DNA of 64,000 bases from Nitrospirota bacterium (GCA_013388435.1 JACAFE010000030.1:65974-129973), one strand, 5' to 3'. Positions 4,543-61,129 are shown, counted from the stretch's first letter. Made by a program: numbers and translations. Notes: generated by a model from the letters alone, not told the origin.

Positions 4543-5298
4543 CTATTTTAAAACCCTCTTTTTCATCAGCCTGAAAGGATATGGAGCAAGAATTATTACT
4601 GCTGCTATAATCCAGAGAATATCCCATAAACAGCAATCAATATTTCCTGCAGCAAATCCACGACATATATTTACGAGATGATATAGTGGTGTAAAAAAGG
4701 CAATCTTCTGAACAATTGAGGGAAGATTTTCGAGAGGGAAAAATATTCCAGAAAAGAGAAACATCGGGGTCATAAAAAGAGTGTAGAAATAATTGAAAGA
4801 GTCTATACCCGGAACAATAGCAACAAAAATTACAGATATCTCAGCAAAGATCACTCCTGTAACAAAAAGAAAAGGTATAACTAAAATTATAAGTGGAGAT
4901 TTTACGAGTCCGAACAATGAAATTACGATTATGATGGTTGTCCCATAAATAATGCTTTTGGTTGCTCCCCACATAAGTTCACCGGCTATAAGGTCATAAA
5001 TAGTTACAGGTGTTGCAAGAATAGCATCGAATGTTTTTTGATAAGTCATTCTGACATATGTTCCATAAGTGCATTCATAAATTGCAGCAAACATAGAAGA
5101 CGATGCAATTATTCCCGGGGCTATAAATTGTATGTACGGCAAACCGTTTATTTCACGAACAAAAGCACCGAGTCCCAAACCCATTGCTGTCAAATACAGA
5201 ACTGGTTCTATAAAATTTAACGCAAAACTTGATTTATAAAGTTTTGTATAAACAGTAAAATTTCTCTGCCAGACTCTTAAAGCACGTCTTAATTTCAT
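4543..5298 (-). CDS. ABC-2 type transporter permease
   Basis: 251 aa with six predicted TM segments. It overlaps the upstream ATPase gene by 4 nt (operon). Confidence 0.8.
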   Translation of the reverse strand: MKLRRALRVWQRNFTVYTKLYKSSFALNFIEPVLYLTAMGLGLGAFVREINGLPYIQFIAPGIIASSSMFAAIYECTYGTYVRMTYQKTFDAILATPVTIYDLIAGELMWGATKSIIYGTTIIIVISLFGLVKSPLIILVIPFLFVTGVIFAEISVIFVAIVPGIDSFNYFYTLFMTPMFLFSGIFFPLENLPSIVQKIAFFTPLYHLVNICRGFAAGNIDCCLWDILWIIAAVIILAPYPFRLMKKRVLK

Positions 5299-6050
5299 AT
5301 TGTTCTCTCAATAAGTGGTTTCCCCGTAAGTTTTAAATAAACATCCTCGAGATGTCCTCCGTGTATTTCCATAAGTTTTACCGGCGTATCAATTGTTATT
5401 ATTCTCCCTGAATCCATAATTGCAACTCTATCGCATAATCTCTCTGCCTCTTCCATATAATGTGTTGTAAGAATTAGTGTTGTATTTTTTGATTTCAGAT
5501 AATTTAGCTTTTCCCATACAGCTCTACGACTGTGCGGATCAAGACCTGTTGTTGGTTCATCGAGAATTAATAGCTCTGGATTATTTATAAGAGACCGGGC
5601 TAATACTAATCTTCTTTTCATCCCGCCGGAAAGATCTGTAATTTTCGTACTTGCTCTGTCTTTCAAATCAACAAAATCAAGGAGTTCCATTGCAACAGGG
5701 AAAGATTTCTTCTTTGGCATATCAAAATATCTTGCATAAACAATAAGATTTTCCAGAACAGAAAGATCAGGATCAAGATTATCTTCCTGTGGCATCACTC
5801 CGGTTCTGGCTTTTATCAAGCTTGAAGATTCTTTAACATCAAGACCAAAAACCCTAACCTCGCCAGAATCCGGTGGCAAAAAACAGTAAATGATTTTCAT
5901 TACCGTGGTCTTCCCTGCCCCATTTGGACCTAAAAAACCAAAACATTCACCTCTATAAATTTCAAAATTTATTGAATTAACAGCTTTGATGCTACCATAA
6001 TTTTTTGTAAGTTCTTTTGCAGTTATAATATTCATAAAATAGTCTGTCAT
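5295..6050 (-). CDS. ABC transporter ATP-binding protein (ABC-2 exporter type)
   Basis: Walker A GPNGAGKT, signature LSGGMKRR, Walker B LILDEPT. The true start may be the internal MNIITAK. Confidence 0.9.
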   Translation of the reverse strand: MTDYFMNIITAKELTKNYGSIKAVNSINFEIYRGECFGFLGPNGAGKTTVMKIIYCFLPPDSGEVRVFGLDVKESSSLIKARTGVMPQEDNLDPDLSVLENLIVYARYFDMPKKKSFPVAMELLDFVDLKDRASTKITDLSGGMKRRLVLARSLINNPELLILDEPTTGLDPHSRRAVWEKLNYLKSKNTTLILTTHYMEEAERLCDRVAIMDSGRIITIDTPVKLMEIHGGHLEDVYLKLTGKPLIERTI

Positions 6051-9001: not shown

Positions 9002-10255
9002 ATGGATGATTTCAGGATAAACACTCAGAATCCCAATATTTTGACCGTTATAAAACCTCTCGGCAAGCCAATATCTTTAAAAGCCGGAGAATTAATTAAA
9101 GCTGAGATATTAGATATTCTTGCTTCAGGTGCGATAACATTAAAAATAGAGGGCAGCACACTTACCGCTAAGACCGATATACCGATTAAAAATAATACTG
9201 AAGCTATTTTTAGAGTTCTTGGTGCCAACAAAGAAGGCACTGAATTGAAATTGCAATTTATCGGGTATGAAAAAGAGGAAATACCTTCACAAAAAATAAT
9301 CCCTTTGGACAATCGGGCGTTAAATAGAATTATTCAGGATATTGGAAAATTATCTTACAGGAATAATATTTCTTCCCAAAAATATCTTGAATTACTCGAA
9401 CATTTTATAAAGGAATTGCCCGATAACATGGAGAATCTGCCTTCGGACACAAAATCGCATGTTCAGGAAATACTCAAACAAAGTCTTATTTCAACTGGCA
9501 AGAACATTATCACAAGACTTTCAGAGTTGCTACAGCAATTGCCTGATAATCTTACCTTTAAAGAATCATTTTTAAAAATTTTCGAACTTTACAGAAAAAA
9601 TATGGCTATTAATATTGAAAAATTCGATTACCAAAATCTTAAGAATTCTATACAAAATACAGGCGTAATTCTTGAAGCAAAATTAAAATCAATGATTTCT
9701 ATTTTGAATAAAATCGTACAATCCGAGATTTCAAAACAAAATATTGACCTGTCAGAAATAAAACTTGATCTAAAGACACAATTACTTCAATTGAAAAATT
9801 TACTAATATCTGAGAATAAGGAAGAATCCATAGAGCTTGTAAATAGTCTTATTAAAGATATTGAGACTTACCAGGTTCTGTCCAAAACAACGGACTCTTT
9901 CTACACTTTTATACCAGTTTTTTGGGATAAGCTAATAAAGAGCGATATTAAATTCAAAAAGAACGAAAAAGATGACTCGAAAAATTCTTTTTCCTGCCGG
10001 ATAGATCTTGACCTTGAAGAAAAAGGCATTTTGAACATTTTGGTTTTAATGAATAATAAATCCTTCATTATTTATTTTAGAGCGGAAAATAATTTATTTT
10101 TAAAACAGCTGCGCTCCTATATTAATGAACTCGACAAACGATTTAAAGAAGCGGGCTTAACTCTTAAGAGCACCGTTCTAATTGATAATAAATCCTCTGT
10201 TTCGGAATTAGATAAAATTGGTAATTTTGAGGGAAAAATAAATATAAAGATATGA
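9002..10255 (+). CDS. FliK-like (flagellar hook-length control-like) protein
   Basis: 417 aa. The C-terminal segment (RIDLDLEEKGILNILVLMNN...FRAEN...L...GLTLKS) follows the FliK C-terminal domain pattern. It sits directly upstream of, and overlaps (ATGA), an FlhB-C-like gene, which is a common pairing. Confidence 0.4.
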   Translation: MDDFRINTQNPNILTVIKPLGKPISLKAGELIKAEILDILASGAITLKIEGSTLTAKTDIPIKNNTEAIFRVLGANKEGTELKLQFIGYEKEEIPSQKIIPLDNRALNRIIQDIGKLSYRNNISSQKYLELLEHFIKELPDNMENLPSDTKSHVQEILKQSLISTGKNIITRLSELLQQLPDNLTFKESFLKIFELYRKNMAINIEKFDYQNLKNSIQNTGVILEAKLKSMISILNKIVQSEISKQNIDLSEIKLDLKTQLLQLKNLLISENKEESIELVNSLIKDIETYQVLSKTTDSFYTFIPVFWDKLIKSDIKFKKNEKDDSKNSFSCRIDLDLEEKGILNILVLMNNKSFIIYFRAENNLFLKQLRSYINELDKRFKEAGLTLKSTVLIDNKSSVSELDKIGNFEGKINIKI

Positions 10256-10536
10256 AAAACCGTCGAAAAAAAGCTGCTGCATTAAGTTATGAATACTATA
10301 AAGATTCTGCTCCGAAGATTATCGCAAAAGGAACAGATTCTTTAGCTGAAAAAATAATCCAGATAGCAAGGGAAAACAATATCCCTATCAAGGAAGATGT
10401 AAAACTTGTTGAAGTGCTTTCAACGCTCGAGTTATACCAGGAAATTCCGTCAGAACTATACAGGGCTGTCGCAGAAATTCTTGCTTTTATTTATTGGGTG
10501 ACAGAAGGGAACAAACAGGAATTTATGTTAAAATAA
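10252..10536 (+). CDS. FlhB C-terminal domain-like protein (EscU/YscU/HrcU family switch-domain paralog)
   Basis: 94 aa. KAAALSYEYYKDSAPKIIAKGTDSLAEKIIQIARENNIPIKEDVKLVEVL...EIPSELYRAVAEILAFIY is the typical stand-alone FlhB C-terminal module. Confidence 0.75.
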   Translation: MKNRRKKAAALSYEYYKDSAPKIIAKGTDSLAEKIIQIARENNIPIKEDVKLVEVLSTLELYQEIPSELYRAVAEILAFIYWVTEGNKQEFMLK

Positions 10537-10555: not shown

Positions 10556-11287
10556 ATGTTTAATTTAAGAAATTTATTAAAAAACTTTAATTTATTGAAT
10601 ATTATTTTAATAATCGCCTGCTTTTATTTTGCAAATTATATAGTATTGCCGATGCTTTCATTAAAAACCTCTTATACATTGCCGTCAACAAAATATATTG
10701 AAAAAAATGATTCTAACAAGCCTACTGAAAACTTTAAAATCCCTTCAATGTCAGATTATATTTTGATTTCTGAAAATAATGCTTTTCATCCTGAACGCAA
10801 GATACCGGTTGAGAAAAAAGCTGAAGAACAACCCGCACCTCCGCCTAAACCAGAATTAGTACTCTATGGAACACTTATTTCTGATGATGTCAGTTACGCT
10901 TATATTGAAGATCTAAAAGCCATTAAAAATACACCCGGCAGAGGCAGGCGGCAGATAACTTTGAAAAAAGGAGACAGTCTTGGTGGTTTTGTTCTTAAAG
11001 AAATTGAGGCTGATAAAATCACTATGTTAAGAGGGGATGAAAAAATAATAGTTGAGGTAAGAAATACTCAAAGATCAAAAACATCCCAAGCATCTGTTTC
11101 TACAACTTCTGCCAAACAGCAGACAACTTCAACTCCTCCGAGAAGATTGGTGCCGCAAACACCTCCTGCATCTTCTAATGTAAATACTTCACACAACGAG
11201 CCTTCAAGTAAAGCATTTATAAACCCACCAAGAAATGCTGAAGAACAGGCTATTTTTAATTTTTTTGACAAATCAAAAAAGGACTAA
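10556..11287 (+). CDS. Membrane-anchored protein with a GspC/PilP-like core and a Ser/Thr/Pro-rich tail
   Basis: 243 aa with an N-terminal TM anchor. The segment LVLYGTLISDD..YAYIED....ITLKKGDSLGGFVLKEIEADKITMLRGDEKIIV resembles T2SS GspC/PilP N-domains. The C-terminal 70 aa are rich in S/T/P/Q. Confidence 0.45.
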   Translation: MFNLRNLLKNFNLLNIILIIACFYFANYIVLPMLSLKTSYTLPSTKYIEKNDSNKPTENFKIPSMSDYILISENNAFHPERKIPVEKKAEEQPAPPPKPELVLYGTLISDDVSYAYIEDLKAIKNTPGRGRRQITLKKGDSLGGFVLKEIEADKITMLRGDEKIIVEVRNTQRSKTSQASVSTTSAKQQTTSTPPRRLVPQTPPASSNVNTSHNEPSSKAFINPPRNAEEQAIFNFFDKSKKD

Positions 11288-11304: not shown

Positions 11305-13374
11305 ATGAATCTTGATAAAGCATTTCAGATTGCTTACAATTTTTACAAAAATGGTGAAATACAAAAAGCAGAATATGGGTTTCGTAAATTACTTGAAAAG
11401 AAACCAAATCATGCTGAATCACTCCGTTTTCTTGGAATCATATTATTGCAAACAAAAAAATATGAATCTGCAATTGATGTTATTCAAAAAGATATTAAGC
11501 TTAATCCTAAGAATGCTGACAGTTATAATAATCTTGGTTTATCTTTTTTTGGCTTAAAACAATATGATAAGGCTATTGAACTTTTCAATAAAGCAATAAA
11601 ATTAGACCCTTCTCATTTTCATGCTTATTATAATCTTGGAAATTCATTCAAAAGTTTAAACAAATTCGACGATGCAATTGAATGCTATAAAAAATCATTA
11701 AGTATTAATCCTCAGTTCATTGAAGCACATAATAATCTTGGAGATGTATATCAGGAAAAAGAACTTTTTGACGAAGCCATACAGAGTTACAAAAATGCCT
11801 TGAATATTAATTCAAATTTTGGAAATATTTATAATAATCTCGGTCTTGCTCTCTTTAAAAAAGGTCTTTATGATGAAGCACTCGGTTATTTTAAAAAAGC
11901 TCTGGAGTTAAATCCACAACTTGCTGATGCCTATAATAATATAGGAAACTATTTTTTTAATAAAAATGAGATTGACCAGGCAATCAACTATTATTTGAAA
12001 GCATTAAAATTAGAACAGAATTTTGCCACATATAACAATCTTGGTAATGCATTTAAAGAAAAAGGGTTGCTTGAAGAAGCAATAAAATTTTATGAAAAAG
12101 CTTTGAATTTTAATCAAAATGCAGTAAATACAGCAATTGACTTAGGAAATTTAATTCGCAAGAAGGGTAAACTTGACGAAGCGATTTGTTTTTTTCAGAA
12201 TCTAATTGATAAAAATCCTCAAAATCCTGTTGTTTATATTAATATGGCGGTTATATTTCAGGAAAAAGGCTTGCTTGATGAAGCTTTTAAATACTATAAC
12301 AAAGCTCTTGAAATTAATCCAAATGTTGCCGAAGGTTATAATAATCTTGCTTTAGCTTTTATTGAGAAAGGACTTTATGAGGAAGCATTGTCAAATTTAG
12401 AAAAATCACTTCAATTAAAACCATCTTTAGCCAGTGCACATTTTAATTTGGCAATGCTATTACTACTTAAAAATAATTTTTCGAAAGGCTGGGAAGAATA
12501 TGAATGGAGATGGAAGACATCTGATTTCAAATCTATAAAATTTAATTATTCCCAACCACTATGGGATGGCTCTGATAAAAATGGAAGAATAATACTTTTG
12601 CACGCAGAACAGGGATTAGGTGACACAATTCATTTTATGCGATATATAAAACTTGTAATAGAAAAAAACATGGAAGTAATATTTAGATGTCCAAAAGAAT
12701 TAATTTCTCTTGCAAAATATTCCTTCCCTGAAGTAAAAATAATTCCATTTGAAGAATCATTACCTGATTTTGAAGTTCATTGTCCTTTGATGAGTTTACC
12801 TTTAATATTGAAAACAACAATTGATAGCATACCAGCTCAAATACCTTATATTTCAGTTGATAGCTCATTAATTAATTTTTGGACAGAAAAAATTAAAGAT
12901 AATTCTAATCTTAAAATAGGTATTGCTTGGTCGGGTAATCCAAAATATAAGAGAGATAAACAACGTTCTTGCTCACTGAAAAATTTTTTAGAAATATTAA
13001 AAATTAAACCTATTAGTTTCTATAGCCTTCAAAAAGGCTCAGGCTCAGAACAAGTAAAAGAACTTCCTGAAGAAATAAATCTCATTGATTTCACAGAGGA
13101 AATAAAAGATTTTTCAGATACAGCAGCAATAATTCAGAATCTTGACCTTATAATTTCTGTCGATACTGCCGTAGCTCATCTTGCAGGTGCAATGGGAAAA
13201 CCTGTATGGACTATGTTGCCATTTGTGCCTGACTGGAGATGGATGCTTGACAGGGAAGATAGTCCATGGTATCCAACTATGCGTTTGTTCAGACAGCAGT
13301 CTATTGATAATTGGAATTCGGTTATCATAAGAATTAAAAAAGAGCTTGAAGCAATTTTATTCAAATCTTTTTGA
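11305..13374 (+). CDS. TPR-repeat protein fused to a GT9 (heptosyltransferase-fold)-like glycosyltransferase domain, paralog 1
   Basis: 689 aa. About 370 aa of 34-residue TPR units, then WEEYEWRW, AEQGLGDTIHFMRY and DTAAII.NLDLIISVDTAVAHLAGAMGKPVW...PDWRWML.REDSPWYPTMRLFRQ, motifs I recognise from TPR-GT9 fusions. Confidence 0.75.
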   Translation: MNLDKAFQIAYNFYKNGEIQKAEYGFRKLLEKKPNHAESLRFLGIILLQTKKYESAIDVIQKDIKLNPKNADSYNNLGLSFFGLKQYDKAIELFNKAIKLDPSHFHAYYNLGNSFKSLNKFDDAIECYKKSLSINPQFIEAHNNLGDVYQEKELFDEAIQSYKNALNINSNFGNIYNNLGLALFKKGLYDEALGYFKKALELNPQLADAYNNIGNYFFNKNEIDQAINYYLKALKLEQNFATYNNLGNAFKEKGLLEEAIKFYEKALNFNQNAVNTAIDLGNLIRKKGKLDEAICFFQNLIDKNPQNPVVYINMAVIFQEKGLLDEAFKYYNKALEINPNVAEGYNNLALAFIEKGLYEEALSNLEKSLQLKPSLASAHFNLAMLLLLKNNFSKGWEEYEWRWKTSDFKSIKFNYSQPLWDGSDKNGRIILLHAEQGLGDTIHFMRYIKLVIEKNMEVIFRCPKELISLAKYSFPEVKIIPFEESLPDFEVHCPLMSLPLILKTTIDSIPAQIPYISVDSSLINFWTEKIKDNSNLKIGIAWSGNPKYKRDKQRSCSLKNFLEILKIKPISFYSLQKGSGSEQVKELPEEINLIDFTEEIKDFSDTAAIIQNLDLIISVDTAVAHLAGAMGKPVWTMLPFVPDWRWMLDREDSPWYPTMRLFRQQSIDNWNSVIIRIKKELEAILFKSF

Positions 13375-13494
13375 CTTTTATTTTGGAAACTTGTTGTTAT
13401 ATAATAAAAAAAAATAAATAAATCTATTTTCCACCTTAATACAGAAAATGCTTAACTTTTAATAAATATTTTTCCTTTAGAAAGGAGACTTCTA

Positions 13495-15060
13495 ATGCTT
13501 ACAGTTTCTGTTGCGGTCTTTAATCCTAACCTTGAAATATTTGATAACTTTCTTCGTTCTCTAAAATCTTACACACCTGAAATGACCCAGCTTTTAATTT
13601 TTGACAATGGTTCTAATTCAAAAGATTTTGTAGATATCGTTAAAAAATATTTTAATGACTCAGATAATAAAATCAAACTAAAAATAACTCACAGCACTAA
13701 AAATATCGGATTTGGCAAAGCTCATAATCAAAATCTTTCTTTTGCAAATAATAGATTCTTCGCAGTGCTGAATGATGATATAGAATTTTTTGAAAACTGG
13801 TCAACTCCCATGATTAAAATTCTTGAAGAAAATCCAAAAATAGCCCAGGTTTGTCCAAAAAAAAATGTCTTTAATACATTACACGGGGATAAAATCGGTC
13901 AGTGGGAGGACACTGATGAACCGGAGTACTGCGAAGCCGCATGCTTTATTATGCCGACATCGATTGCAAAAAAATATGGACTCTTTGATGAAATTTATCA
14001 GTATGCTTATTTTGAAGATATGGACTTATCATTACGCCTTAGAAAAGATGGCTACATTCTTAGAAATACTGATATTAACTGGCAACATCACCGCGGAACA
14101 ACAACTATAAAAATGATTGCTGAAAACTTTGACCTTCCGGGTTATTACATTTTAAACGAATACAATTTCAAAAAACGCTGGAATGCTTATGTAATGAAAG
14201 CAAGATTTGGCAAGACAATTGTAATAAAAAGAGCAGGTGATCTTGAGGATGTTTTTCTTATAACTCCGGTAATTGAAGCTCTTAAAGAAAAATATTCTGA
14301 TAGCGTGATTTTGCTGATGACTAAAACACCTGAATCAGTCAAAGGCTGTCATGATATAGACGGTTATGTTGGCTATAACAATCCTATACCTTGTGATATT
14401 CTTTTTGATCTTGATTTTTCATATGAAAAAGATTTTCGCAAACACATTGTAGATGTCTTCTCTGAAATTGCAAACGTGAGAACAAAGAAAAAATCGGGAA
14501 CTCTTTATATAGAAAAAAACGATGTAGAATATGTTGATAATCTCTTGAAAGACATCCCTTTCCCTGTTACACTTGACTTTAGTGATTATCCTGATGGAAA
14601 AAGATGGAAAAGACAAAATTATGTTGAATTAGGGAAAAAGATAAAACAAGCAGGATTCAGTATTGTAACTGTTGGAAAATCTTCAGAACAAAGTTCAGAT
14701 TATCTTGATGCAGATTTAAGCTTAATAAATGTTTTATCTTATCAGCAGACTGCACTTACAATAGCAAAAAGTAAAATTTTCATTGGCACCGATGGTCTTC
14801 TTGCACATTTTGCTCAGTCAACTCGTACTCCAAGCATTATTCTTTATGGTTGCACACTCCCTGAATTTGTATCAGACACTTCTTTGCCTTCCCTTTTTCC
14901 AATAATATCACCAGTTGCATGCAAAGGTTGCAGACATAGATATGCGGCAGGAACAATTATCGCATGTCCGAGAAATTTTGCCTGTATGGAAGTAATTAAA
15001 CCAGATGATGTATTTGAAGCTTTCAAAGAGATAACAACAAGGCTGAATATCGCTCCATAA
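13495..15060 (+). CDS. Bifunctional GT2 (N-terminal) / GT9-like (C-terminal) glycosyltransferase
   Basis: 521 aa. The N-terminus is GT-A like (VSVAVFNP...FDNGSN...NDD). The C-terminal half starts TIVIKRAGDLEDVFLITPVIEALKEKY, typical of heptosyltransferase-fold N-domains. Confidence 0.7.
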   Translation: MLTVSVAVFNPNLEIFDNFLRSLKSYTPEMTQLLIFDNGSNSKDFVDIVKKYFNDSDNKIKLKITHSTKNIGFGKAHNQNLSFANNRFFAVLNDDIEFFENWSTPMIKILEENPKIAQVCPKKNVFNTLHGDKIGQWEDTDEPEYCEAACFIMPTSIAKKYGLFDEIYQYAYFEDMDLSLRLRKDGYILRNTDINWQHHRGTTTIKMIAENFDLPGYYILNEYNFKKRWNAYVMKARFGKTIVIKRAGDLEDVFLITPVIEALKEKYSDSVILLMTKTPESVKGCHDIDGYVGYNNPIPCDILFDLDFSYEKDFRKHIVDVFSEIANVRTKKKSGTLYIEKNDVEYVDNLLKDIPFPVTLDFSDYPDGKRWKRQNYVELGKKIKQAGFSIVTVGKSSEQSSDYLDADLSLINVLSYQQTALTIAKSKIFIGTDGLLAHFAQSTRTPSIILYGCTLPEFVSDTSLPSLFPIISPVACKGCRHRYAAGTIIACPRNFACMEVIKPDDVFEAFKEITTRLNIAP

Positions 15061-16589
15061 TGGAAACCGATTCACTTACTATAGTTTTTTCTACAAGAGA
15101 TGAAAATCTATCTTTTATAAAACACCTTAAAGATACATCAGGAATTAATTCTATTGAAATATTGCAATTTGTTAATAAAGGCGAATATTCTCTTACCGAA
15201 ATTTATAACAAAGGACTGAAAGAAGCTAAAAATGACATAGTTGTATTTTCTCATGATGATATTATTCTTGATGATAAAGATATATGGGGCAAAAAAATTT
15301 TACAACATTTTAATAATAGTGATTTCGGAATTATTGGGAAAGCAGGCACAACAAGTCTTACAAAGTCCGGGCGCTGGTGGGACGAGCCGCATTTTATGGT
15401 CGGGGAGGTATGGCATCAACAAACAGACCATGATACAGGAAAAATAAAGAGATGGGAGAATAAATATAGCGGTAATTTTGGCAACAGAATCATAGAAACA
15501 ATAATTATAGACGGCCTGTTTTTTGCGGTTCATAAAAGAAGATTAAAAAAACATTTCGACGAAGACTTTAAAGGTTTCCATTTTTATGATATAGATTTTA
15601 GCTTCGCAAATCATCTCGCCGGAGTCAAAATAGGTGTTGTTTTCAATTTTGGAATTACCCATAAATCAATTGGCATAACAAATCAACAATGGGAAATAAA
15701 TAGAGCAAAATTTGTTTCTAAATGGAATAATTTTCTGCCTTACAGTATAACTCCGGAAATTATCTACGATAACTTTAGGATAGAACTATCCAACCAGCCA
15801 AAGATCGCTATTATAATCAGGGAACATAATTCCCGGTCTTTACTTAGATGTATCAAAAGTATTTCAAAAAAAACATCATATAAAAATTATAAAATATATA
15901 TAGTTGGTAATAATTATAATCATGAAATATCCGAAGCCGATGAAGATATTTTAAAAGAAAACATCAATATCATATTTATTGATTATCGAGATAAAAATAT
16001 AGCTAAAACTCTCAATTATATAGTGCGTAACCATATCGACAAAGATACTGAATTGATTTTATTCTGTGAAGATAAAATTGAATTATTAAATGACTCTTTG
16101 AGCAGATTCGTAGAAATATATAATGACAGAAAACACTTAATAGGAACCATGGGAATCAGACTCCATACAACAGATAATAAAATTTACCATGCTGGTATTT
16201 CATTATATGTCGATAACCAGAATAGATTAAGAATATATTTTTCAGGAAATGGTAGTTATTATTCATATAATCCCGGCATACAATATTACGCAACTGCAAT
16301 AACAGGTTCATTTATGTTAGTAAGTAAAGAAGTATTTTTTCTGCTCGGAGGATTTGCTGAATACTATCAGGAAGCGTTTTATGATATTGAATTTAACTTG
16401 AGAGCAATTGCATACGGAAAAATAAATTGTTTCATAGGAGATGCTGTAGCATATTATTATCCTTATTCGGATAAAGAAAATAATAGTTGCAATAATGAAA
16501 ATCTGAATAACGATTTTCAAAAATTGATCAATTTTATAAATCAAAATTTAAATAATCGAAACATGTTGCAGCATATACATTTTTTCTAA
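15060..16589 (+). CDS. Double GT-A (GT2-like) glycosyltransferase
   Basis: 509 aa. Two GT-A-like halves (LTIVFSTRD...FSHDDI and KIAIIIREHNS...). The start overlaps the previous stop (TAATG). Confidence 0.6.
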   Translation: METDSLTIVFSTRDENLSFIKHLKDTSGINSIEILQFVNKGEYSLTEIYNKGLKEAKNDIVVFSHDDIILDDKDIWGKKILQHFNNSDFGIIGKAGTTSLTKSGRWWDEPHFMVGEVWHQQTDHDTGKIKRWENKYSGNFGNRIIETIIIDGLFFAVHKRRLKKHFDEDFKGFHFYDIDFSFANHLAGVKIGVVFNFGITHKSIGITNQQWEINRAKFVSKWNNFLPYSITPEIIYDNFRIELSNQPKIAIIIREHNSRSLLRCIKSISKKTSYKNYKIYIVGNNYNHEISEADEDILKENINIIFIDYRDKNIAKTLNYIVRNHIDKDTELILFCEDKIELLNDSLSRFVEIYNDRKHLIGTMGIRLHTTDNKIYHAGISLYVDNQNRLRIYFSGNGSYYSYNPGIQYYATAITGSFMLVSKEVFFLLGGFAEYYQEAFYDIEFNLRAIAYGKINCFIGDAVAYYYPYSDKENNSCNNENLNNDFQKLINFINQNLNNRNMLQHIHFF

Positions 16590-16659
16590 CTTCTTATAAT
16601 TGTCTTTTGAATTATTATTACAAAACCCGTTTTAAATAAGTTTTATTCAGAAAATAAAA

Positions 16660-18423
16660 ATGGATATAAACGAAGCTATTGCATTGGCACTAAAAGAACA
16701 AAAATCAGGAAACCTGATAATGGCGGAAAGCATATACAGAAAAATCCTTGAAATTCAACCTGACAATGTTAATGCTTTGCATTTTTTAGGTTTGATTTAT
16801 TTTGTAAACAAAGATTTTGACTCAGCTATAGAATATATCAGTAAATCCTTAAATATAGAGCCGGCTTATCCCGAGGCTTTGTTGAACATGGGCTTAGTTT
16901 TAATGGCTAAAGGACATTTTGATGAAGCTCTTTACTATTTAAGAAAATCATTTCAGTTTAACCCAGAATGTGCTGAAACTTTAAAGAACATAGGGGCAAT
17001 TCTTCAGGTGCAAGGTAATTACGACGAAGCAATAATAAATTATAAAAAGGCATTGGAAATAAATCCTGAATTATCGGATATATATAAAAATGTTGCCTAT
17101 CTTTTCCGAGATAAAGGAATGCTCAATGAAGCAATAATCTTTTTTAAAAAAGCTCTCGAATATTATCCCGGAATTGCCGATATTCATAATAATCTTGGGT
17201 TGGCACTGAATGATATTGGAGAAATCGATGAAGCGATAGGATATTTAAGAAATGCCATAAAAATTAACCCGGGAAATCCAGAATTTTATAATAACCTCGG
17301 AGTCATACTCCGGGGGAAAGGGCTATTTGATGAAGCCATAGGATGTTTCACACAAGCTCTCATGCTTAACAACAGATTTCTGGAAGCTTACAATAATATC
17401 GCTGTATCGCTAAGAGAAAAAGGTCATATCGAAGAGGCAATATATTTTTTAAGAAAAGCTTTGGATATTAATCCTGATTTTGCATCTGCGCATTGGAATC
17501 TTGCACTTATTTTTCTTTTAACAGGAAACTATTCTGAAGGCTGGAAAGAATATAAATGGTTCTGGAAACTTAAAGACACAAATAATTTTAATTTTTCAAA
17601 ACCTCTATGGGATGGTTTCAATATTGACGGTAAAACTTTACTCGTATATGCCGAACAGGGTTATGGAGATACAATACAATTTATAAGATATATACCTTTC
17701 ATTACAGAGGCCGGCGCAGAAGTCATTCTTCTTTGTCAGGAGGAACTAAAAGAATTATTTTCTAATTTAAGAAATCTAAAACAGGTTATAACATTCGGCG
17801 AAAACTTACCTCATTTTGACTTTTATTGTTCTATTTTAATGCTGCCTGCAATATTTCAGACAACTATTGAAAATATACCTGCAAATGTACCATATATTTT
17901 TACCGAACAATCCCTTATTAATGAATGGCGTAAAAGACTTAACAATAATAATTCAACATTTAAGATTGGTTTAGTATGGTCGAGTGGACACAGGAATTCT
18001 ACACTTCAATTCAGGTCCAGCAGTCTCGAATCTTTCTCGATGCTTTCATCAATAAAGGGCGTCGAATTCTATAGCCTCCAGAAAGGCATTTCAAACGAAG
18101 AGGTAATAAATTTTTACCAAAAAATGAAAATTCATGATTTTACAAATAATATATTCAATTTTAATGATACGGCTGCTTTGATAATGAATCTCGATTTAAT
18201 TATTTCTGTTGACACTTCTGTTGCACATCTTGCAGGAGCACTTGGCAAACCTGTCTGGGTGCTGTTACCCTCGGTACCTGACTGGCGCTGGATGCTTAAC
18301 AGGGAAGATAGCCCATGGTATCCTTCAATGAGACTTTTCAGGCAAACAAAACACGGAGATTGGGATACCGTTATAAAAAATGTACGCGATGCAATTTTAG
18401 ATTTTATACAGATTAAATCTTAA
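16660..18423 (+). CDS. TPR-repeat protein fused to a GT9-like domain, paralog 2
   Basis: 587 aa with the same architecture and C-terminal motifs as 11305-13374 (WKEYKWFW, AEQGYGDTIQFIRY, SVDTSVAHLAGALGKPVW...PDWRWMLNREDSPWYPSMRLFRQ). Confidence 0.75.
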   Translation: MDINEAIALALKEQKSGNLIMAESIYRKILEIQPDNVNALHFLGLIYFVNKDFDSAIEYISKSLNIEPAYPEALLNMGLVLMAKGHFDEALYYLRKSFQFNPECAETLKNIGAILQVQGNYDEAIINYKKALEINPELSDIYKNVAYLFRDKGMLNEAIIFFKKALEYYPGIADIHNNLGLALNDIGEIDEAIGYLRNAIKINPGNPEFYNNLGVILRGKGLFDEAIGCFTQALMLNNRFLEAYNNIAVSLREKGHIEEAIYFLRKALDINPDFASAHWNLALIFLLTGNYSEGWKEYKWFWKLKDTNNFNFSKPLWDGFNIDGKTLLVYAEQGYGDTIQFIRYIPFITEAGAEVILLCQEELKELFSNLRNLKQVITFGENLPHFDFYCSILMLPAIFQTTIENIPANVPYIFTEQSLINEWRKRLNNNNSTFKIGLVWSSGHRNSTLQFRSSSLESFSMLSSIKGVEFYSLQKGISNEEVINFYQKMKIHDFTNNIFNFNDTAALIMNLDLIISVDTSVAHLAGALGKPVWVLLPSVPDWRWMLNREDSPWYPSMRLFRQTKHGDWDTVIKNVRDAILDFIQIKS

Positions 18424-18455
18424 CCTAAATAATAAAGAAATTGCTCAAATAACGT

Positions 18456-20537
18456 ATGGATATTAACTTAAAAATAAGGCTTGCATACGATCATCTTCAG
18501 GCTGGAAATATTGAACAATCAATAAAAATATGCGAAAGTATTATTGCAAACGAACCTTTAAATCCATACATCCTCGAGTTTCTTGGGATAATTTACCATA
18601 AAAAAGGTGATTTGCAGTCTGCAATCAAATATATTAAAAAAGCTGCCGAAATCAAGCCTGATAGCATTGAAACTTTGATTAATTTAGGAACTTTACTCGA
18701 GCAACATGGAAAATATCATGAAGCCCTGGAATGTTACAATAAAGTCTTACAAATAAACCCTGAATCGATTATTGCAAAAAATAAATCGGGGTTGATTTTT
18801 CTCAAAACCGGTCAATTCTCCGAAGCTGTTTCTGTTTTTGAAAAACTCTCAGAAATTCATCCAACATACGAAAATTTCTTTAATCTCGGAATATCTTATT
18901 ATAAAAATAATGACATTGATAATTCTCTTGCGAGTTTCAGAAAAGTTATCAAATTAAAACCAGATTTTTTAGATGCATATATTAATATCGAATCTATTCT
19001 GAGAGAAAAAGGATTGCCCGGTGAAGCAGAATACTATCATAATCTGGCTACTAAAATAAAAGATTCACTTAATACACTTAATACATTATACAATTCAAAA
19101 TGCGATGTTTATAGAGATTTAAGTGATAAATGGATAAAATGCATGTCTTCATTTCCGATAATTTATTCAGATGAAGACGAAATATTAAAAGTTAGGGAAA
19201 ATTACATAAATTTACTACAGGATTTATCCAATACAATTCTCAACTCCAGTACAGATGAGATAAAGATACTTTATGATTATATAGGGAAATACAAACCTTT
19301 TTATCTTCCATATCAGGGATTGAATGATAAGGAATTACAGAAAATATACGGAAATGCCGTACATAAAATTGTTTTATCAAGATATCCATTTCTGGAAAAT
19401 AACAGTTTCTATGGTTTTAATATTAAAAAAGATAAAATTCGTATAGGAATTGTGAGCGGCTTTTTTTATTATCATTCTGTCTGGAAAATACCTATTAAAG
19501 GCTGGATAGAAAATCTTGATAAAACCAAATTCACTTTATATGGATATCATACTAATTTAAAAAAAGATAATGAAACTAATTATGCAAGAAAATGTTTTAA
19601 TCAATTTGTAGAAGATATACTTGATTTTGAATTATTGTTTAAAAAAATTATTGATGACTGTATTGATATACTAATTTATCCTGAAATTGGAATGGATTCG
19701 TTATCATTAAAACTTGCTGCTGTTAGACTTGCTCCTGTGCAATGTGCATCATGGGGACATCCTGAAACATCTGGACTTCCAACCATAGATTATTATCTAT
19801 CAGGTGAATTGATAGAACCTCCTGATGCTGATAATCATTATTCTGAAACACTTATCCGCTTGCCAAATCTTTCTGTATTCTATAATCCTCCAGAATTTCA
19901 AAAAATTAATATGACTCGTGAATCATTTGGATTACGAAAAAATTCCATTATTTATCACTGCTGCCAGGCTCTTTATAAATTTCTTCCACAATATGATAAT
20001 ATTTTCCCTCAGATAGCCCGAGAAGTAAGAGATTGTCAATTTGTTTTTTCCTCTTTTCCTTTTATTCCAGATGCATTAGAAAAATTCCGTTTACGTATTT
20101 ATAAAGCTTTTCAAAAATACAAACTTAATGCCGAGAAATTTGTGGTATTTTTACCTCAACTTAATCCATCTCAGTATCATGCTCTTAATCACCTTGCGGA
20201 TATATTTCTCGATTGCATTGGATGGTCAGGTTGCAATTCTGTTCTTGAAGCTTTATCGTGTAATCTTCCAGTTATTACAATGCCCGGGAATCTAATGCGA
20301 AGCCGTGAAGGAACAGCAATTTTAAAATTAATTGACTTAAAAACAACTATAGCAAATTCTATTGAAGAATATATTAATCTCGCTATTAAATTAGGGAATG
20401 ACTCTGACCTGAGGGGAAAAATATCAGATGAAATTGCTAATAAATTTAACATTATTTGTAATGATAAATCTTGTATAAAAGCTCTTGAAGAGTTTTTTAT
20501 TGAATCTGCCAAACATATTGGTAGAAAATCTTTATAA
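18456..20537 (+). CDS. TPR-repeat protein fused to a GT41 (OGT / SPINDLY-type) glycosyltransferase domain
   Basis: 693 aa. After the TPRs: RIGIVSGFFYYHSVWK..., PEIGMDSLSLKLAAVRLAPVQCASWGHPETSGLPTIDYYLSGELIEPPDADNHYSETLIRLPN. This is the pattern I know from SPINDLY/OGT-family C-terminal domains. Confidence 0.7.
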   Translation: MDINLKIRLAYDHLQAGNIEQSIKICESIIANEPLNPYILEFLGIIYHKKGDLQSAIKYIKKAAEIKPDSIETLINLGTLLEQHGKYHEALECYNKVLQINPESIIAKNKSGLIFLKTGQFSEAVSVFEKLSEIHPTYENFFNLGISYYKNNDIDNSLASFRKVIKLKPDFLDAYINIESILREKGLPGEAEYYHNLATKIKDSLNTLNTLYNSKCDVYRDLSDKWIKCMSSFPIIYSDEDEILKVRENYINLLQDLSNTILNSSTDEIKILYDYIGKYKPFYLPYQGLNDKELQKIYGNAVHKIVLSRYPFLENNSFYGFNIKKDKIRIGIVSGFFYYHSVWKIPIKGWIENLDKTKFTLYGYHTNLKKDNETNYARKCFNQFVEDILDFELLFKKIIDDCIDILIYPEIGMDSLSLKLAAVRLAPVQCASWGHPETSGLPTIDYYLSGELIEPPDADNHYSETLIRLPNLSVFYNPPEFQKINMTRESFGLRKNSIIYHCCQALYKFLPQYDNIFPQIAREVRDCQFVFSSFPFIPDALEKFRLRIYKAFQKYKLNAEKFVVFLPQLNPSQYHALNHLADIFLDCIGWSGCNSVLEALSCNLPVITMPGNLMRSREGTAILKLIDLKTTIANSIEEYINLAIKLGNDSDLRGKISDEIANKFNIICNDKSCIKALEEFFIESAKHIGRKSL

Positions 20538-20539
20538 TC

Positions 20540-22084
20540 ATGAACATCTTAGATATCATTAATCAAATATACAATTTTATAAATACTGGTGAATTAATAA
20601 AGGCTGAAAAAGCTTGTCTATCAATGTTAGAAGAATACCCGGATAATCCTGAAATTATGGGCATACTTGGTTTAGTTTATTTTCAGCTTGGGAATGATAA
20701 CCTTGCACAATATTTTTTATCAAAATCATTAATAATTAAACCTGATAATGCCTTCCTGCTACACAATTTGGGAATGACTTTTCTAAAAAAAGGCGATATT
20801 GATAATGCAATTATCTCTTTTCAAAAAGCTTTGCAACTTAACCAGAATCTTGCTTATAGCTGTCACGCTCTCGGCTTATCCTATGACATAAAAGGAGAGT
20901 ATAGTGAAGCTCTAAAGTGGTATGAAAAAGCAATTAAAATTGATTCAAATATAGCGGATGCCCACAATAATATTGGTATTATACTCCAAAAAATGGGTAA
21001 ATATCCTGAAGCAATTTCCAGCTTTAAAAAAGCCCTCGAAATAAACCCTAAATATGCTGAAGTTTACAGCAATATGGGCCTTGCATATAGAGAATATGGT
21101 TTAATTGATAATTCCATAGAATACTATCGAAAAAGTCTTGAGATTAATCCTGAATTAATAGATGTGCACGTTAATTTAGCTCTTTCACTTCTTTTAAATG
21201 GAGATTACCTTACGGGCTGGGAAGAATATGAATGGAGAAAAAAACAACTCCCCAAAATATTTTCTAAACCATTCTGGGAATCTTATGATGATGATGTTTC
21301 TGGCAAAAAAATTCTTATTTACACTGAACAGGGTTTTGGTGATGCTATACAATTTATACGTTATATACCTTTTGTATATGAGCTTGGTGCAAAAATTATT
21401 TTAATTTGTCCAAAGGAATTAAAATCTTTATTTCAAAATATTCAAGGTATATATAATATTTTAACATTTGGCGAAAAAATTCCTGATTTTGATTTGCACT
21501 GTCCCATCCTCTCCCTGCCTTATATTTTTAAAACTACTATTGAAAATATCCCATCCAATATTCCTTATTTATTCCCGGATAAAACAATAATTAATAAATG
21601 GGCAGAAAAGATTCATAGTGATAATAACAATAAACTGAAAATAGGTATAGCATGGTCTGGCAGAAATCATGTACATAATATAAATTTATTTGCACCTTTA
21701 TCTGATATAAATGAAGTAACATTTTTCAGTCTGCAGAAAGGTGAGGCAGCTTCACAGGCTTTAAACCCACCAAACGGCATGAAAATAATTGATTATTCTG
21801 ACCAGATAACCGATTTTTTAGATACTGCCGGAATAATAATGAATCTCGATCTTGTTATCTCAATTGATACTTCTGTTGCTCATTTAGCCGGTGCACTTGG
21901 TAAAAATGTCTGGACATTACTTACTTACGTTCCGGACTGGCGCTGGTTATTAAACAGAAAAGACAGTCCATGGTACCCGACAATGCGTCTTTTCCGTCAA
22001 AAATCTATTGGTAACTGGAATTCTGTTTTTTCCAAAGTTCTGAATGAATTAAATATAATTATCCGAAAAAATTCTTTTGAATAA
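20540..22084 (+). CDS. TPR-repeat protein fused to a GT9-like domain, paralog 3
   Basis: 514 aa. WEEYEWRKK, TEQGFGDAIQFIRY, SIDTSVAHLAGALGKNVW...PDWRWLLNRKDSPWYPTMRLFRQ. It starts 2 nt after the previous stop. Confidence 0.75.
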   Translation: MNILDIINQIYNFINTGELIKAEKACLSMLEEYPDNPEIMGILGLVYFQLGNDNLAQYFLSKSLIIKPDNAFLLHNLGMTFLKKGDIDNAIISFQKALQLNQNLAYSCHALGLSYDIKGEYSEALKWYEKAIKIDSNIADAHNNIGIILQKMGKYPEAISSFKKALEINPKYAEVYSNMGLAYREYGLIDNSIEYYRKSLEINPELIDVHVNLALSLLLNGDYLTGWEEYEWRKKQLPKIFSKPFWESYDDDVSGKKILIYTEQGFGDAIQFIRYIPFVYELGAKIILICPKELKSLFQNIQGIYNILTFGEKIPDFDLHCPILSLPYIFKTTIENIPSNIPYLFPDKTIINKWAEKIHSDNNNKLKIGIAWSGRNHVHNINLFAPLSDINEVTFFSLQKGEAASQALNPPNGMKIIDYSDQITDFLDTAGIIMNLDLVISIDTSVAHLAGALGKNVWTLLTYVPDWRWLLNRKDSPWYPTMRLFRQKSIGNWNSVFSKVLNELNIIIRKNSFE

Positions 22085-22229: not shown

Positions 22230-23156
22230 TTAAATAGTTGTTACTCCGTCTATTCTTTTAAGCCCTGCTTTTATTGCAAAATCTATTGCTTCTGCATATT
22301 CATTTTTTGTAATTCTTCTGTTTAAAGGAGGATGTTCAAAGGCTTTAAAACAGGGATGGTATTGATCCATAATATTTATATAAGTATTGCGTGAAATCTC
22401 ATTAGCAATAAAATTAACAATATTTTCAGTTCCGGCAATTCTTTCGGGCAATACTAAATGCCTTACAAGTAAACCTCTGAGAGCTATACCATACTTATTT
22501 GTGATTAAATCGCCTACTTGTCTATGCATTTCTTTTAATATTATTTTTGCATTTTCAGGGTAATTTCCTGCCTTAGAATATTTTTTTGCCATTTCAGAAT
22601 CCCAGAATTTAAAATCAGGCATATAAATATCAATAATACCTTCAAGAATTTGAATTGCCTGAAGAGACTCGTATCCTCCGCAATTATAAACAACTGGAAC
22701 TCTAAGTCCATTTTCAGAAGCTATCTTAATTGATTTAAGCAGCATTGGCATCTGATGTGTAGGTGTTACAAGATTGATATTATGACAGCCCTGATTCTGC
22801 AGCTCTATCATAATTTCAGCAACTCTTTCAAAAGTTGTCTCAACGCCCTCACCAAGATGACTGATTGAATAATTCTGACAGAAAATGCAGCCAAGATTAC
22901 AGTTGCCCATAAAAATTGTTCCTGAGCCAAAATTGCCAACAAGAGGTTTTTCTTCACCAAAATGGGCTCCATAGCTTGAGATAAAAGGTTTAACTCCTGT
23001 TTTGCAAAAACCTTTTTCTCCTGATGTTCTGTCAACCCTGCACTCTCTTGGACATAGGCTGCACTCTTTTAAAATTGAAAAAGCCTCTTCAATTTTATCT
23101 AAGAAAATACCAGGTGGCAATTGTAAATATGCAGGAACAAAAAAATCCTTTTCCAT
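22230..23156 (-). CDS. Radical SAM protein, PflX-like (COG1313-type)
   Basis: 308 aa. N-terminal CPRECRVDR...GFC cluster plus the radical SAM CNLGCIFCQN (CxxxCxxC) motif. Confidence 0.75.
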   Translation of the reverse strand: MEKDFFVPAYLQLPPGIFLDKIEEAFSILKECSLCPRECRVDRTSGEKGFCKTGVKPFISSYGAHFGEEKPLVGNFGSGTIFMGNCNLGCIFCQNYSISHLGEGVETTFERVAEIMIELQNQGCHNINLVTPTHQMPMLLKSIKIASENGLRVPVVYNCGGYESLQAIQILEGIIDIYMPDFKFWDSEMAKKYSKAGNYPENAKIILKEMHRQVGDLITNKYGIALRGLLVRHLVLPERIAGTENIVNFIANEISRNTYINIMDQYHPCFKAFEHPPLNRRITKNEYAEAIDFAIKAGLKRIDGVTTI

Positions 23157-58469: not shown

Positions 58470-59822
58470 TTATACCTCCTGCGCAACTGAAGATGATTTC
58501 ATCTCAGAAATTATTTCCTCAGGCCCTTTCTTTGCATATTTTGTTAAAAGATAGACATCAATCAATGCAAGAAAACCGTATAAAAGAGTAAATCCCACAA
58601 ATGATATCAGCACCTGTGTTGTATTGATTGATTTTGAAACTGCATCAGCAGTTTTTAGAAGACTATAGACGATCCAGGGTTGTCTTCCGACTTCTGCAAC
58701 TATCCAACCGATCTGGACAGCAATATATGGCAGGATGAGAGAGAATAACATTATATTAAGAAAGAAAGGCTTTGATTCCATGTTTCCCTTTCTCGATAAA
58801 ACAACAGATAGAAATGATAGAAAAATAAAGAGAAAGCCGAGTCCCACCATCAGCCGAAAACTTAAGAAGGTTAGCGTCACAGGCGGTCGATCTTCTTTGG
58901 GATATGCCTTAAGCCCTTTCACTTCAGCATTACTGTCATGGAATGCCAAATAGCTCAGCATTTTTGGCACTTTAAATGCTTCCATAGCATTACGCTCATT
59001 TTCCGGGTCTGGCACAACAATTAATGGATATGAAGCAGCTTGTTATGTCTCCCATACCGATTCCATAGCAGCAAATTTCGTTGGCTGTGCTTTTGCAACC
59101 TCAACCCCGTGAAAATCACCTGTCATCAACACAAATATTGCACTGACAAGAGCAAACCGTGATGCAATTTTAAATGACGTATTAAAAAATTGAAGGTTAT
59201 TCTTCTTGAGGAGATGATATGCTGAAACTCCCATAACAAAAAAGGCTGCAAGGACATAACTGGACACGATCGTATGGAAAAATTTTGTCCATCCATAAGG
59301 GTTAGTCACTAAAGCCATAAAATCAACCATCTCTGCCCTATTGTTCCTCAGTACATAACCAACTGGTTTCTGCATCCAGCCATTTGCAAGCAGTATCCAT
59401 AATGCCGATAGATTTGTTGCAAAAGCTACAATCCAGATCGAAAGCGCATGCAATTTCTTGGAGACTTTATTCCAGCCGAATATCCAGAGACCGATGAAAG
59501 ATGATTCAAGAAAAAATGCAACTGTGGCTTCTATGGCAAGAGGCGCTCCAAATATATCGCCAACATATTTAGAATACTCTGCCCAGTTCATGCCAAACTG
59601 AAATTCCAATGTGATGCCGGTCACGACTCCGAGCGCAAAATTTATAAGGAACAACTTTCCCCAGAACTTTGTCATCTTCAGGTACATTTCATTATCAGTA
59701 AGAACATACCGTGTTTCCATATAAGCCACAAGAAGTGAAAGGCCGAGTGTGAGCGGAACAAAAATAAAATGAAAGGCAGCTGTTGAAGCGAACTGCAATC
59801 TGCTTAATGTCAAAACATCCAT
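58470..59822 (-). pseudogene. cydA: Cytochrome bd oxidase subunit I, interrupted by a single in-frame TAA in the Q-loop region
   Basis: Tracked ORFs 59043-59822 and 58470-59015 are in the same frame. The continuous reading is ...KFAAMESVWET-TAA(59045-59043)-QAASYPLIVVPDPENERNAMEAFKVPKMLSYL.... The total of 449 sense codons is a normal CydA length. CydA motifs are present on both sides (FHFIFVPLTLG; GWIVAEVGRQPW). Confidence 0.85.
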
Positions 59823-60824: not shown

Positions 60825-60853
60825 TTGACAATCATTGTATTTTTTTGTATATT
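60825..60853 (+). promoter_or_regulatory. Sigma70-type promoter candidate for the HTH / R-M operon
   Basis: TTGACA (60825-60830), 17-nt spacer, TATATT (60848-60853). Confidence 0.5.
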
Positions 60854-60862
60854 ATAGTCAAA

Positions 60863-61020
60863 TTTTATGAAAGATTATGTTTTAATAAAAGGATTGCCTT
60901 TATGGAAGAAAAAGAAATAATGACTGTTAAGCAAGTTGCAGAATATTTACAGATGGATGAACACACCATCTATAAACTTGCTCGTTCAGGACTTATCCCT
61001 TCCCTAAAAATCGCTGGTCA
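60863..61020 (+). repeat. Left arm of the inverted repeat bracketing the R-M block
   Basis: 158 nt aligned by hand to the reverse complement of 63843-64000 with 9 mismatches. It covers the 5' UTR and codons 1-40 of the HTH gene. Confidence 0.9.
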
Positions 61021-61129
61021 GTGGCGGTTTAAAAAAGATGTGATTGATAAATGGATAAGTGAGGAATCGTTAGAAAGGAGCGCAAAATTCTTTTCAATAC
61101 AACAGAAAGGAAAGAAAAAAATAAGATGA
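60902..61129 (+). CDS. Excisionase-family (MerR-like) helix-turn-helix DNA-binding protein
   Basis: MTVKQVAEYLQMDEHTIYKLARSGLIPSLKIAGQWRFKKDVIDKWI is the classic excisionase-type HTH. I prefer ATG 60902 because the tracked start 60845 lies inside the promoter. The stop overlaps the next start (ATGA). Confidence 0.8.
   Translation: MEEKEIMTVKQVAEYLQMDEHTIYKLARSGLIPSLKIAGQWRFKKDVIDKWISEESLERSAKFFSIQQKGKKKIR

Follow-up and report, generated by a model that had tools for sequence, protein, structure and literature searches.

A Nitrospirota gene cluster of FlmG-related tetratricopeptide repeat glycosyltransferases: a candidate multi-enzyme module for protein O-glycosylation

This report concerns six adjacent genes, here called G1 to G6, in a 64,000-nt stretch of DNA from a Nitrospirota (Thermodesulfovibrionales-like) bacterium (GCA_013388435.1 JACAFE010000030.1:65974-129973). 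The whole stretch is referred to as the window, and positions are counted from its first letter. Calling of open reading frames (ORFs) placed the six genes at 11305-22084, all in the same direction on the plus strand. G1, G4 and G6 encode tetratricopeptide repeats (TPRs) fused to a glycosyltransferase (GT) domain and were assigned by sequence comparison to the family of the flagellin-modifying enzyme FlmG. The cluster is interpreted, with moderate confidence, as a cytoplasmic, TPR-addressed, multi-enzyme module for protein O-glycosylation that has been kept in a Thermodesulfovibrionales-like lineage. As additions to a known and almost uncharacterised class, its genes are new and come in a new multi-enzyme arrangement; nothing in them contradicts current understanding.

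Homology of G1, G4 and G6 to FlmG

FlmG O-glycosylates flagellin in Caulobacter crescentus and Brevundimonas subvibrioides. According to published experiments, it binds flagellin with its TPR domain and picks the sugar donor (pseudaminic or legionaminic acid) with its GT-B domain, and domain swaps between orthologues are functional; through the TPR domain, FlmG glycosylates six flagellin paralogues. The flmG gene was partly rebuilt from cloning primers that accompany the eLife 2020 publication, and genomes were scanned with a pattern degenerate at codon third positions; the scan for flmG with the exact primers returned nothing. The orthologue recovered was that of Caulobacter vibrioides OR37 (L004:1796-3592, minus strand, 598 aa), which adjoins flagellin genes.

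In BLASTP comparisons with this protein, the catalytic domain of G1 aligned from end to end (E = 2e-25, 25% identity), G4 aligned over its full length (E = 7e-46) and G6 matched with E = 4e-27. Given the end-to-end alignment of the catalytic domain and the full-length match of G4, the three proteins are classed by sequence as true homologues within the TPR + GT-B family of FlmG. The first-pass annotation of the window, prepared from the DNA sequence without database searches, had mentioned FlmG as an analogy, which these alignments turn into real homology. FlmG and the window proteins have the same layout, with TPRs followed by a GT-B domain, and are soluble; FlmG is close in size to G4 (596-598 aa and 587 aa, respectively). 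A GWE.YE linker and the motifs W.G..L.GK, EQG.GD and PWYP are common to FlmG and the window catalytic domains.

The two differ in donor motif and in genomic setting. In FlmG, GFSNATINL replaces the SVDT..H donor motif, and FlmG has no Pfam GT9 match. Since SVDT..H is kept in the window proteins and lost in FlmG, the sugar donor of G1, G4 and G6 is probably different from the cytidine monophosphate (CMP)-pseudaminic or CMP-legionaminic acid used by FlmG. The Caulobacter gene is a single copy beside flagellin and pseudaminic-acid genes, whereas here three paralogues are accompanied by a GT41 enzyme and GT2 enzymes; unlike the Caulobacter locus L004, the window contains no flagellin or nonulosonic-acid genes.

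Catalytic domains and TPR arrays

G1, G4 and G6 are paralogues (approximately 45% identical overall), as had been proposed from a shared motif (SVDT.VAHLAGA.GK.VW..PDWRW.L.R.DSPWYP.MRLFRQ) that was found in the proteins. Long TPR arrays were detected with Pfam in G1, G4, G5 and G6. The earlier description of the paralogues as GT9-like held for the fold and was marginal in sequence: when the catalytic domains were searched alone, the GT9 model PF01075 scored 26.6 bits with G1, 26.7 with G4 and 18.6 with G6 (cutoff 22), over a match of about 33 residues, so that G6 fell under the cutoff. The G1 catalytic domain had no match among PDB sequences at E <= 1.

Models were built with AlphaFold2 for full-length G4 (predicted local distance difference test score, pLDDT, 92.9) and for its catalytic domain alone (pLDDT 88). 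The full-length model has nine TPRs, made of 18 helices (residues 1-305), followed by a GT-B domain with two Rossmann-like lobes. A fold search with full-length G4 was dominated by the TPRs and uninformative for the catalytic fold, and was rerun with the catalytic domain alone. In this second Foldseek search, the best PDB neighbour was 3tov (E = 7e-10, template modelling (TM) score 0.65-0.67), followed by the lipopolysaccharide (LPS) heptosyltransferases WaaF (1psw) and WaaC (2h1h). The autotransporter heptosyltransferase TibC ranked after these two (TM score approximately 0.45-0.53). A heptosyltransferase fold is thus supported by modelled structure for the catalytic domains of G1, G4 and G6.

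In an alignment of the sequences with WaaC and WaaF of E. coli, the catalytic-base loop corresponded to EQG.GD and the SVDTGLSHL donor motif to SVDT.VAHL. The Asp of EQG.GD, which we take to be the counterpart of the catalytic base Asp13 of WaaC, and the DT..H motif were invariant or nearly so across 45 homologues.

Between the paralogues, the TPR parts are 34-40% identical and the catalytic domains 50-55%, and the number of repeats falls from about 11.5 in G1 to about 8.5-9 in G4 and about 6.6 in G6. This stronger divergence of the TPRs is consistent with different acceptors, or different sites, served with a similar donor.

Organisation of the cluster and the G2, G3 and G5 enzymes

The coordinates of the cluster and of its neighbours are collected in Table 1. 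All six ORFs lay where the first-pass annotation had placed them, and its domain calls for G2 (GT2/GT9), G3 (double GT2) and G5 (TPR-GT41) agreed with Pfam. From G1 to G6, the successive intergenic gaps are 120, -1, 70, 32 and 2 nt; upstream, the genes fliK, flhB', X243 and G1 are spaced by -4, 19 and 17 nt. No convincing plus-strand terminator was found between 9002 and 22084, and this, with the tight spacing, suggests that the cluster genes are co-transcribed. The window gene order from about position 451 into G4 was repeated at 99-100% identity on L107, an independent 23.7-kb metagenome contig, and is therefore not an assembly artefact. G1-G6 are all soluble, cytoplasmic proteins, since no transmembrane segment or signal peptide was found in any of them.

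Table 1. Coordinates of the cluster genes and their neighbours in the window
Feature	Position	Strand	Description
fliK	9002-10255	+	Hook-length control; Pfam Flg_hook 38.1 bits; 4-nt overlap with the next gene
flhB'	10252-10536	+	FlhB C-terminal-domain protein, 94 aa; Bac_export_2 75.9 bits, profile positions 262-335 of 335
X243	10556-11287	+	243-aa bitopic membrane protein; transmembrane helix at about residues 7-36; conserved GspC-like core (weak sequence match); variable Ser/Thr/Pro-rich tail
G1	11305-13374	+	689 aa; about 11.5 TPRs and FlmG-class GT9-fold catalytic domain (about 12475-13374)
G2	13495-15060	+	521 aa; N-terminal GT2 and C-terminal GT9-like domains; no TPRs
G3	15060-16589	+	509 aa; Glyco_tranf_2_5 and GT2 domains; no TPRs; 1-nt overlap with the G2 stop codon
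G4	16660-18423	+	587 aa; about 8.5-9 TPRs and FlmG-class GT9-fold catalytic domain (residues about 326-586)
G5	18456-20537	+	693 aa; about 5-6 TPRs and GT41 catalytic domain of the OGT/SPINDLY type
G6	20540-22084	+	514 aa; about 6.6 TPRs and FlmG-class GT9-fold catalytic domain
Radical SAM gene	22230-23156	-	Convergent with the cluster; 3' boundary; same position in L019

G5 carries its TPRs within residues 5-200 (approximately) and matched the GT41 model PF13844 with 84.4 bits (cutoff 25). Against PDB sequences, its catalytic region matched SPINDLY at 1.4e-28, the bacterial TPR protein 5djs at 2e-22 and human OGT at about 5e-19, and HMW1C-like enzymes at about 1e-10 only; the NGTferase model NF049992 scored 53.6 bits (cutoff 1000). 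Because the SPINDLY and OGT scores far exceed those of HMW1C-like enzymes and the NGTferase score is under its cutoff, G5 is assigned by sequence to the OGT/SPINDLY type of GT41 and not to the HMW1C/NGT type. With N-terminal TPRs before a GT41 domain, G5 has the layout of plant SPINDLY protein O-fucosyltransferase, OGT and their bacterial homologues, and differs from them in having fewer TPRs. No HMW-type adhesin gene adjoins the cluster.

In G2, Pfam detected GT2 (53.5 bits) and GT9 (40.3 bits) domains, and the C-terminal domain alone clearly passed the GT9 model (42.6 bits). In G3, Glyco_tranf_2_5 scored 95.2 bits and GT2 30.7 bits. All matches of G2 and G3 to rhamnosyltransferase, exopolysaccharide glycosyltransferase and LPS heptosyltransferase models were far under the curated cutoffs.

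Comparisons that had been drawn with the BAHT family (TibC, Aah) and with HMW1C gave poor matches, and membership of both families was rejected: the BAHT model TIGR04414 was matched by G2 only (21.9 bits, cutoff 200), and NGTferase fell equally under its threshold. BAHT enzymes resemble the window proteins in their GT9-type fold and in acting on proteins in the cytoplasm; they differ in lacking TPRs, and are structurally less similar to the window domains than the LPS GT9 enzymes are. No autotransporter gene was found near the cluster.

Elsewhere in the window, at 48436-56037 on the plus strand, a single gene encodes a soluble protein of 2,533 aa with three GT2 domains, a GT9 domain (75 bits) and a GT4/GT1 module. 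The GT9-like part of G2 aligned weakly to residues 1049-1269 of this protein (22% identity, E = 6e-9), which is unlinked to the cluster.

Proposed mode of action

In the proposed mechanism, the N-terminal TPR superhelix of G1, G4 and G6 would dock the acceptor protein, and the C-terminal GT9-fold (GT-B) domain would move a sugar from a nucleotide sugar to Ser or Thr, with the Asp of EQG.GD acting as base. The three paralogues most likely recognise separate acceptors or sites and would share a similar donor, G5 would add a second kind of sugar, and the TPR-less double enzymes G2 and G3, as putative chain-extending enzymes, would lengthen the glycan.

Protein glycosylation is favoured because of the homology to FlmG and to OGT/SPINDLY, the solubility of the enzymes, their intact motifs, the divergence of the TPRs, and the lack of lipid-carrier and export genes in the window and at the related loci. 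Multi-enzyme protein glycosylation rather than LPS core synthesis, as had been inferred earlier, accordingly stays the most likely reading; the flagellar link through fliK-flhB' is clade-specific.

Several observations weigh against this reading. No acceptor gene was identified, and the 64-kb window contains no flagellin gene; near the cluster, there are no genes of sugar-nucleotide biosynthesis. The identity to FlmG is only about 25% and the donor motif differs; FlmG is the only characterised protein in a family of 42,309 cluster representatives, most sampled members of which, those of other phyla included, lie in non-flagellar contexts. TPR-containing capsule polymerases are known (PDB 8qoy; PMC5974469, PMC11666461), and Glyco_tranf_2_5, the N-terminal family of G3, has been reported in loci for the lipooligosaccharide outer core of Acinetobacter, which decides nothing by itself. 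Finally, the junction between fliK-flhB' and the cluster is limited to the clade of the window (the window itself, with L023, L024 and L107): the flagellar pair of GCA_020725385.1 is on another contig than the cluster, by chemotaxis genes and a fliA-like sigma factor gene, and in Dissulfurispiraceae/Nitrospirota genomes it stands alone beside serS (L105, L106).

Possible non-protein acceptors

An alternative is that the cluster makes or decorates a non-protein glycoconjugate, such as a cytoplasmic polysaccharide, a teichoic-acid-like polymer, a glycolipid or the LPS core, and that the TPRs serve for oligomerisation or scaffolding. We consider this unlikely, while acknowledging that it draws on several features of the enzymes. 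The closest catalytic folds are those of the LPS heptosyltransferases WaaC and WaaF and of a Veillonella GT9 enzyme (TM scores 0.5-0.67), with which the window proteins also share the catalytic Asp and SVDT..H(L), a motif of the adenosine diphosphate (ADP)-heptose type that is kept in G1, G4 and G6. The GT2-GT9 and GT2-GT2 enzymes, like the 2,533-aa multi-GT protein, resemble polymer builders. One related cluster (L018) has Polysacc_synt_2 and Glycos_transf_4 genes close by, and the Acinetobacter occurrence of Glyco_tranf_2_5 points in the same direction.

Given the capsule polymerases already mentioned, the premise of the first-pass annotation that characterised TPR-GT fusions have proteins as their targets is false. 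The group 2 capsule polymerase of Actinobacillus pleuropneumoniae serotype 3 (8qoy), a multienzyme, shares with the window proteins a multi-domain build with TPRs and GT-B domains. It differs in its TagF-like catalytic family, and the structural match is weak (TM score 0.23) and driven by the TPRs; such polymerases belong to capsule loci of the kps type, none of which is present here. The window proteins are only 10-14% identical to GT9 enzymes in the PDB, are fused to long TPR arrays, unlike the LPS heptosyltransferases, and have no waa/LPS-core gene context.

The gene context argues further against a lipid-linked or exported polymer. No initiating phosphoglycosyltransferase, flippase, polymerase, O-antigen ligase, lipid-carrier or kps-type exporter gene was found in the window or in L019, L022 and L107, and neither the window nor the orthologous clusters contain Kdo (3-deoxy-D-manno-oct-2-ulosonic acid) transferase, waa or lpx genes. 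The C-terminal domains matched GT9 models (marginally in the case of G1, G4 and G6) and GT41 models, and the orthologous clusters lie outside LPS and capsule loci, in line with what the first-pass annotation had expected of a protein-glycosylation system. FlmG, the only characterised relative with the same architecture and catalytic family, acts on protein, as do the GT41 enzymes of known function. If the cluster nevertheless builds a polysaccharide, this would correct a widespread assumption on TPR-GT fusions.

A pair of genes for an ABC-2 membrane protein and an ATPase is present on the minus strand at 4543-6050, about 5 kb upstream of the cluster. The broad ABC-2 family includes polysaccharide exporters, Wzm/Wzt among them. 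The pair was rejected as a candidate exporter for the cluster: it is on the opposite strand, with unrelated genes in between, and is not beside the cluster in L019.

The upstream flagellar pair

The genes fliK and flhB', which the first-pass annotation had missed, lie immediately upstream of X243, and flhB' is the usual partner of fliK. Together with the FlmG homology, this arrangement could point to a dedicated FlmG-like island for flagellin glycosylation, in which three readers attend to more than one flagellin or site and the genes are co-transcribed with fliK-flhB' as flagellar middle genes. The close spacing of fliK, flhB', X243 and G1 fits this, as does the service of six flagellin paralogues by FlmG through its TPR domain. 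The junction itself was found on three independent contigs, at 95-100% identity in L023, 67-85% in L024 and 99-100% in L107; the FliK orthologues are 99%, 96%, 78% and 74% identical.

The junction was followed in surveys started from X243 and, in reverse, from FliK homologues. The pair was upstream of X243 in only two of the 47 informative metagenome loci, namely L023 and L024, the closest relatives of the window, and is free-standing elsewhere in the order. GCA_020725385.1, with its pair on a separate contig beside che genes, keeps G1-G5 at 72-88% identity. As the pair and the cluster are apart in relatives, their junction is a recent, clade-specific rearrangement and no conserved association, and the adjacency was dropped as strong support for a flagellin target. 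The 64-kb window contains no flagellin, Maf, nonulosonic-acid or heptose-pathway genes, family members from other phyla have no flagellin within 8 kb, and the donor motif is unlike that of FlmG. A dedicated flagellin island is, on this evidence, improbable. Flagellin is the best single named candidate for the acceptor, because of the FlmG precedent and the clade-specific adjacency of fliK-flhB', and is put forward only tentatively, as a guess that is more apt to fail than to hold.

Away from other flagellar structural genes, fliK-flhB' was observed as a free-standing unit in L105 (3847-5378), L106 (10001-11683) and L104 (10001-11505); it lies beside serS in two of these genomes and beside che genes in the third.

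X243 and the conserved gene neighbourhood

The X243 family is specific to Nitrospirota/Thermodesulfovibrionales. X243 matched the NCBIfam model GspC_delta weakly (26.9 bits, cutoff 150), and a profile of its family gave only insignificant TolR matches in the PDB. Its tail (residues 165-243) consists to 37% of Ser, Thr and Pro.

Synteny was surveyed at 80 metagenome loci carrying X243 homologues. Among loci with at least 2, 4 or 8 kb of flanking sequence, cluster genes were present downstream of X243 in 11/31, 9/22 and 6/12, respectively, and upstream in 3/38, 2/22 and 1/12. When Pfam families were pooled, the 88 upstream ORFs included T2SSM_b (20), PilN (16), PilM_2 (13) and T2SSK (10), and the 76 downstream ORFs included TPR (12), GT2 (9), GNAT acetyltransferase (8) and GT41 (5). 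At many loci, X243 homologues directly follow gspK-gspL-gspM. Because type II secretion families lie upstream, and with the agreement of the weak GspC_delta match and of locus L020, X243 is classed as the probable terminal, GspC-like gene in a type II secretion-type operon, an assignment in which the sequence match to GspC itself is weak. The conserved partner of the cluster across relatives is X243, rather than fliK-flhB'.

In GCA_020725385.1 (L019), X243 and G1-G5 are kept at 72-88% identity (G1 72%, G2 88%, G3 83%, G4 86%), with histidine-biosynthesis genes upstream and G6 absent. A more distant version was found in L022, whose X243 is 47% identical: a divergent TPR-GT gene is followed by X243, GT2-GT9, GT2-GT2 and TPR-GT41, and the module is 47-69% identical to that of the window (G2 69%, G3 55%). 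The G2 orthologue in L040 is 78% identical.

This neighbourhood raises the further alternative that the module is tied to a type II secretion-type system and glycosylates the Ser/Thr/Pro-rich tail of X243, another component, or cargo before export. It is favoured by the position of X243 after gspK-gspL-gspM, by the excess of cluster genes downstream over upstream, by the place of TPR, GT2 and GT41 among the commonest downstream families and by the composition of the tail. The BAHT and HMW1C systems illustrate that a protein glycosylated in the cytoplasm can still be exported through Sec afterwards. We nevertheless regard this explanation as quite improbable: about half of the X243 loci, including the 20-kb loci L037 and L069, have no GT genes nearby; the tail is conserved neither in sequence nor in length and is linker-like; a GspC-like topology would put it in the periplasm; the GspC assignment is weak, with no PDB match; and a shared position in one bacterial order may be inherited synteny with no functional link.

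A 946-aa protein encoded at 29280-32120 (plus strand) had also been named as a candidate substrate, and no linkage of its gene to the cluster was found. A hydrophobic segment of signal-like character lies at its N-terminus, and it carries an InlB B-repeat-like domain (Flg_new_2) as well as, at the C-terminus, a BACON domain.

Size and spread of the family

A word-indexed search for family members gave at least 7,916 matches among 8,000 scored candidates, the best being about 60% identical among the matches listed. NCBI labels these proteins 'tetratricopeptide repeat-containing glycosyltransferase family protein', with members from Thermodesulfovibrionales and Nitrospira. An exhaustive search at E <= 1e-3 brought the family to 42,309 representatives of clusters built at 50% identity; a limit of E <= 1e-30 left 20,285.

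Among relatives of the G4 catalytic domain (P0299-P0448), many are giant proteins of 1,300-3,100 aa in which the domain occurs 3-6 times within one polypeptide; TPR-GT modules are thus often concatenated in a single polypeptide as well as arrayed as adjacent genes. The chance matches of the degenerate pattern in Betaproteobacteria, Casimicrobiaceae and Tardiphaga were all family members, 30-49% identical to the window catalytic domains. These proteins are closer to the window than FlmG is and are often encoded in tandem, and no flagellin was found within 8 kb of them. FlmG has been described in the literature as narrowly confined to Caulobacterales. As the family is found across phyla, that statement holds just for close FlmG orthologues.

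The catalytic domain of FlmG therefore belongs to a very large cross-phyla family, in which tandem arrays, giant proteins and non-flagellar contexts are common. A broader proposal can be formulated from this: a hitherto undescribed, general cytoplasmic pathway of protein O-glycosylation in Nitrospirota, in which FlmG/GT9-fold TPR readers (with a heptose-like or other non-nonulosonic donor) and a GT41 enzyme would assemble hetero-oligosaccharides on proteins that are non-flagellar and probably exported, with a link to type II secretion-type systems. We judge it rather doubtful; if true, the family of 42,309 clusters would represent a vast, unexplored TPR-addressed protein glycosylation in bacteria. 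The compact and conserved cluster would offer a tractable test for non-flagellin protein targets, for the sugars and for the generality of TPR-addressed cytoplasmic glycosylation.

On two other Nitrospirota contigs (L018, 902-11020; L015, 10001-21446), FlmG-class TPR-GTs are mixed with TPR-GT41 genes, one of the two also having a sulfotransferase; the pairing of these two enzyme types recurs beyond the lineage of the window. On L009, a contig of a metagenome-assembled genome labelled Bradyrhizobium sp. (DATLXF010000058.1), the proteins encoded by flmG and by the flagellin genes are 100% identical to those of OR37 (L004), which suggests that the contig is mis-binned or contaminating in the public assembly.

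Other features of the window

Two minus-strand ORFs at 58470-59822 share between them subunit I of cytochrome bd oxidase: one, of 259 aa, covers profile positions 1-254, and the other, of 181 aa, covers positions 266-418. A frameshift, pseudogene or sequencing error may account for the split. At 60845-63832 on the plus strand, a compact restriction-modification cassette encodes an HTH_17 protein, an N6/N4 DNA methylase, an EcoRV-family endonuclease (366 bits) and a D12-class adenine methylase.

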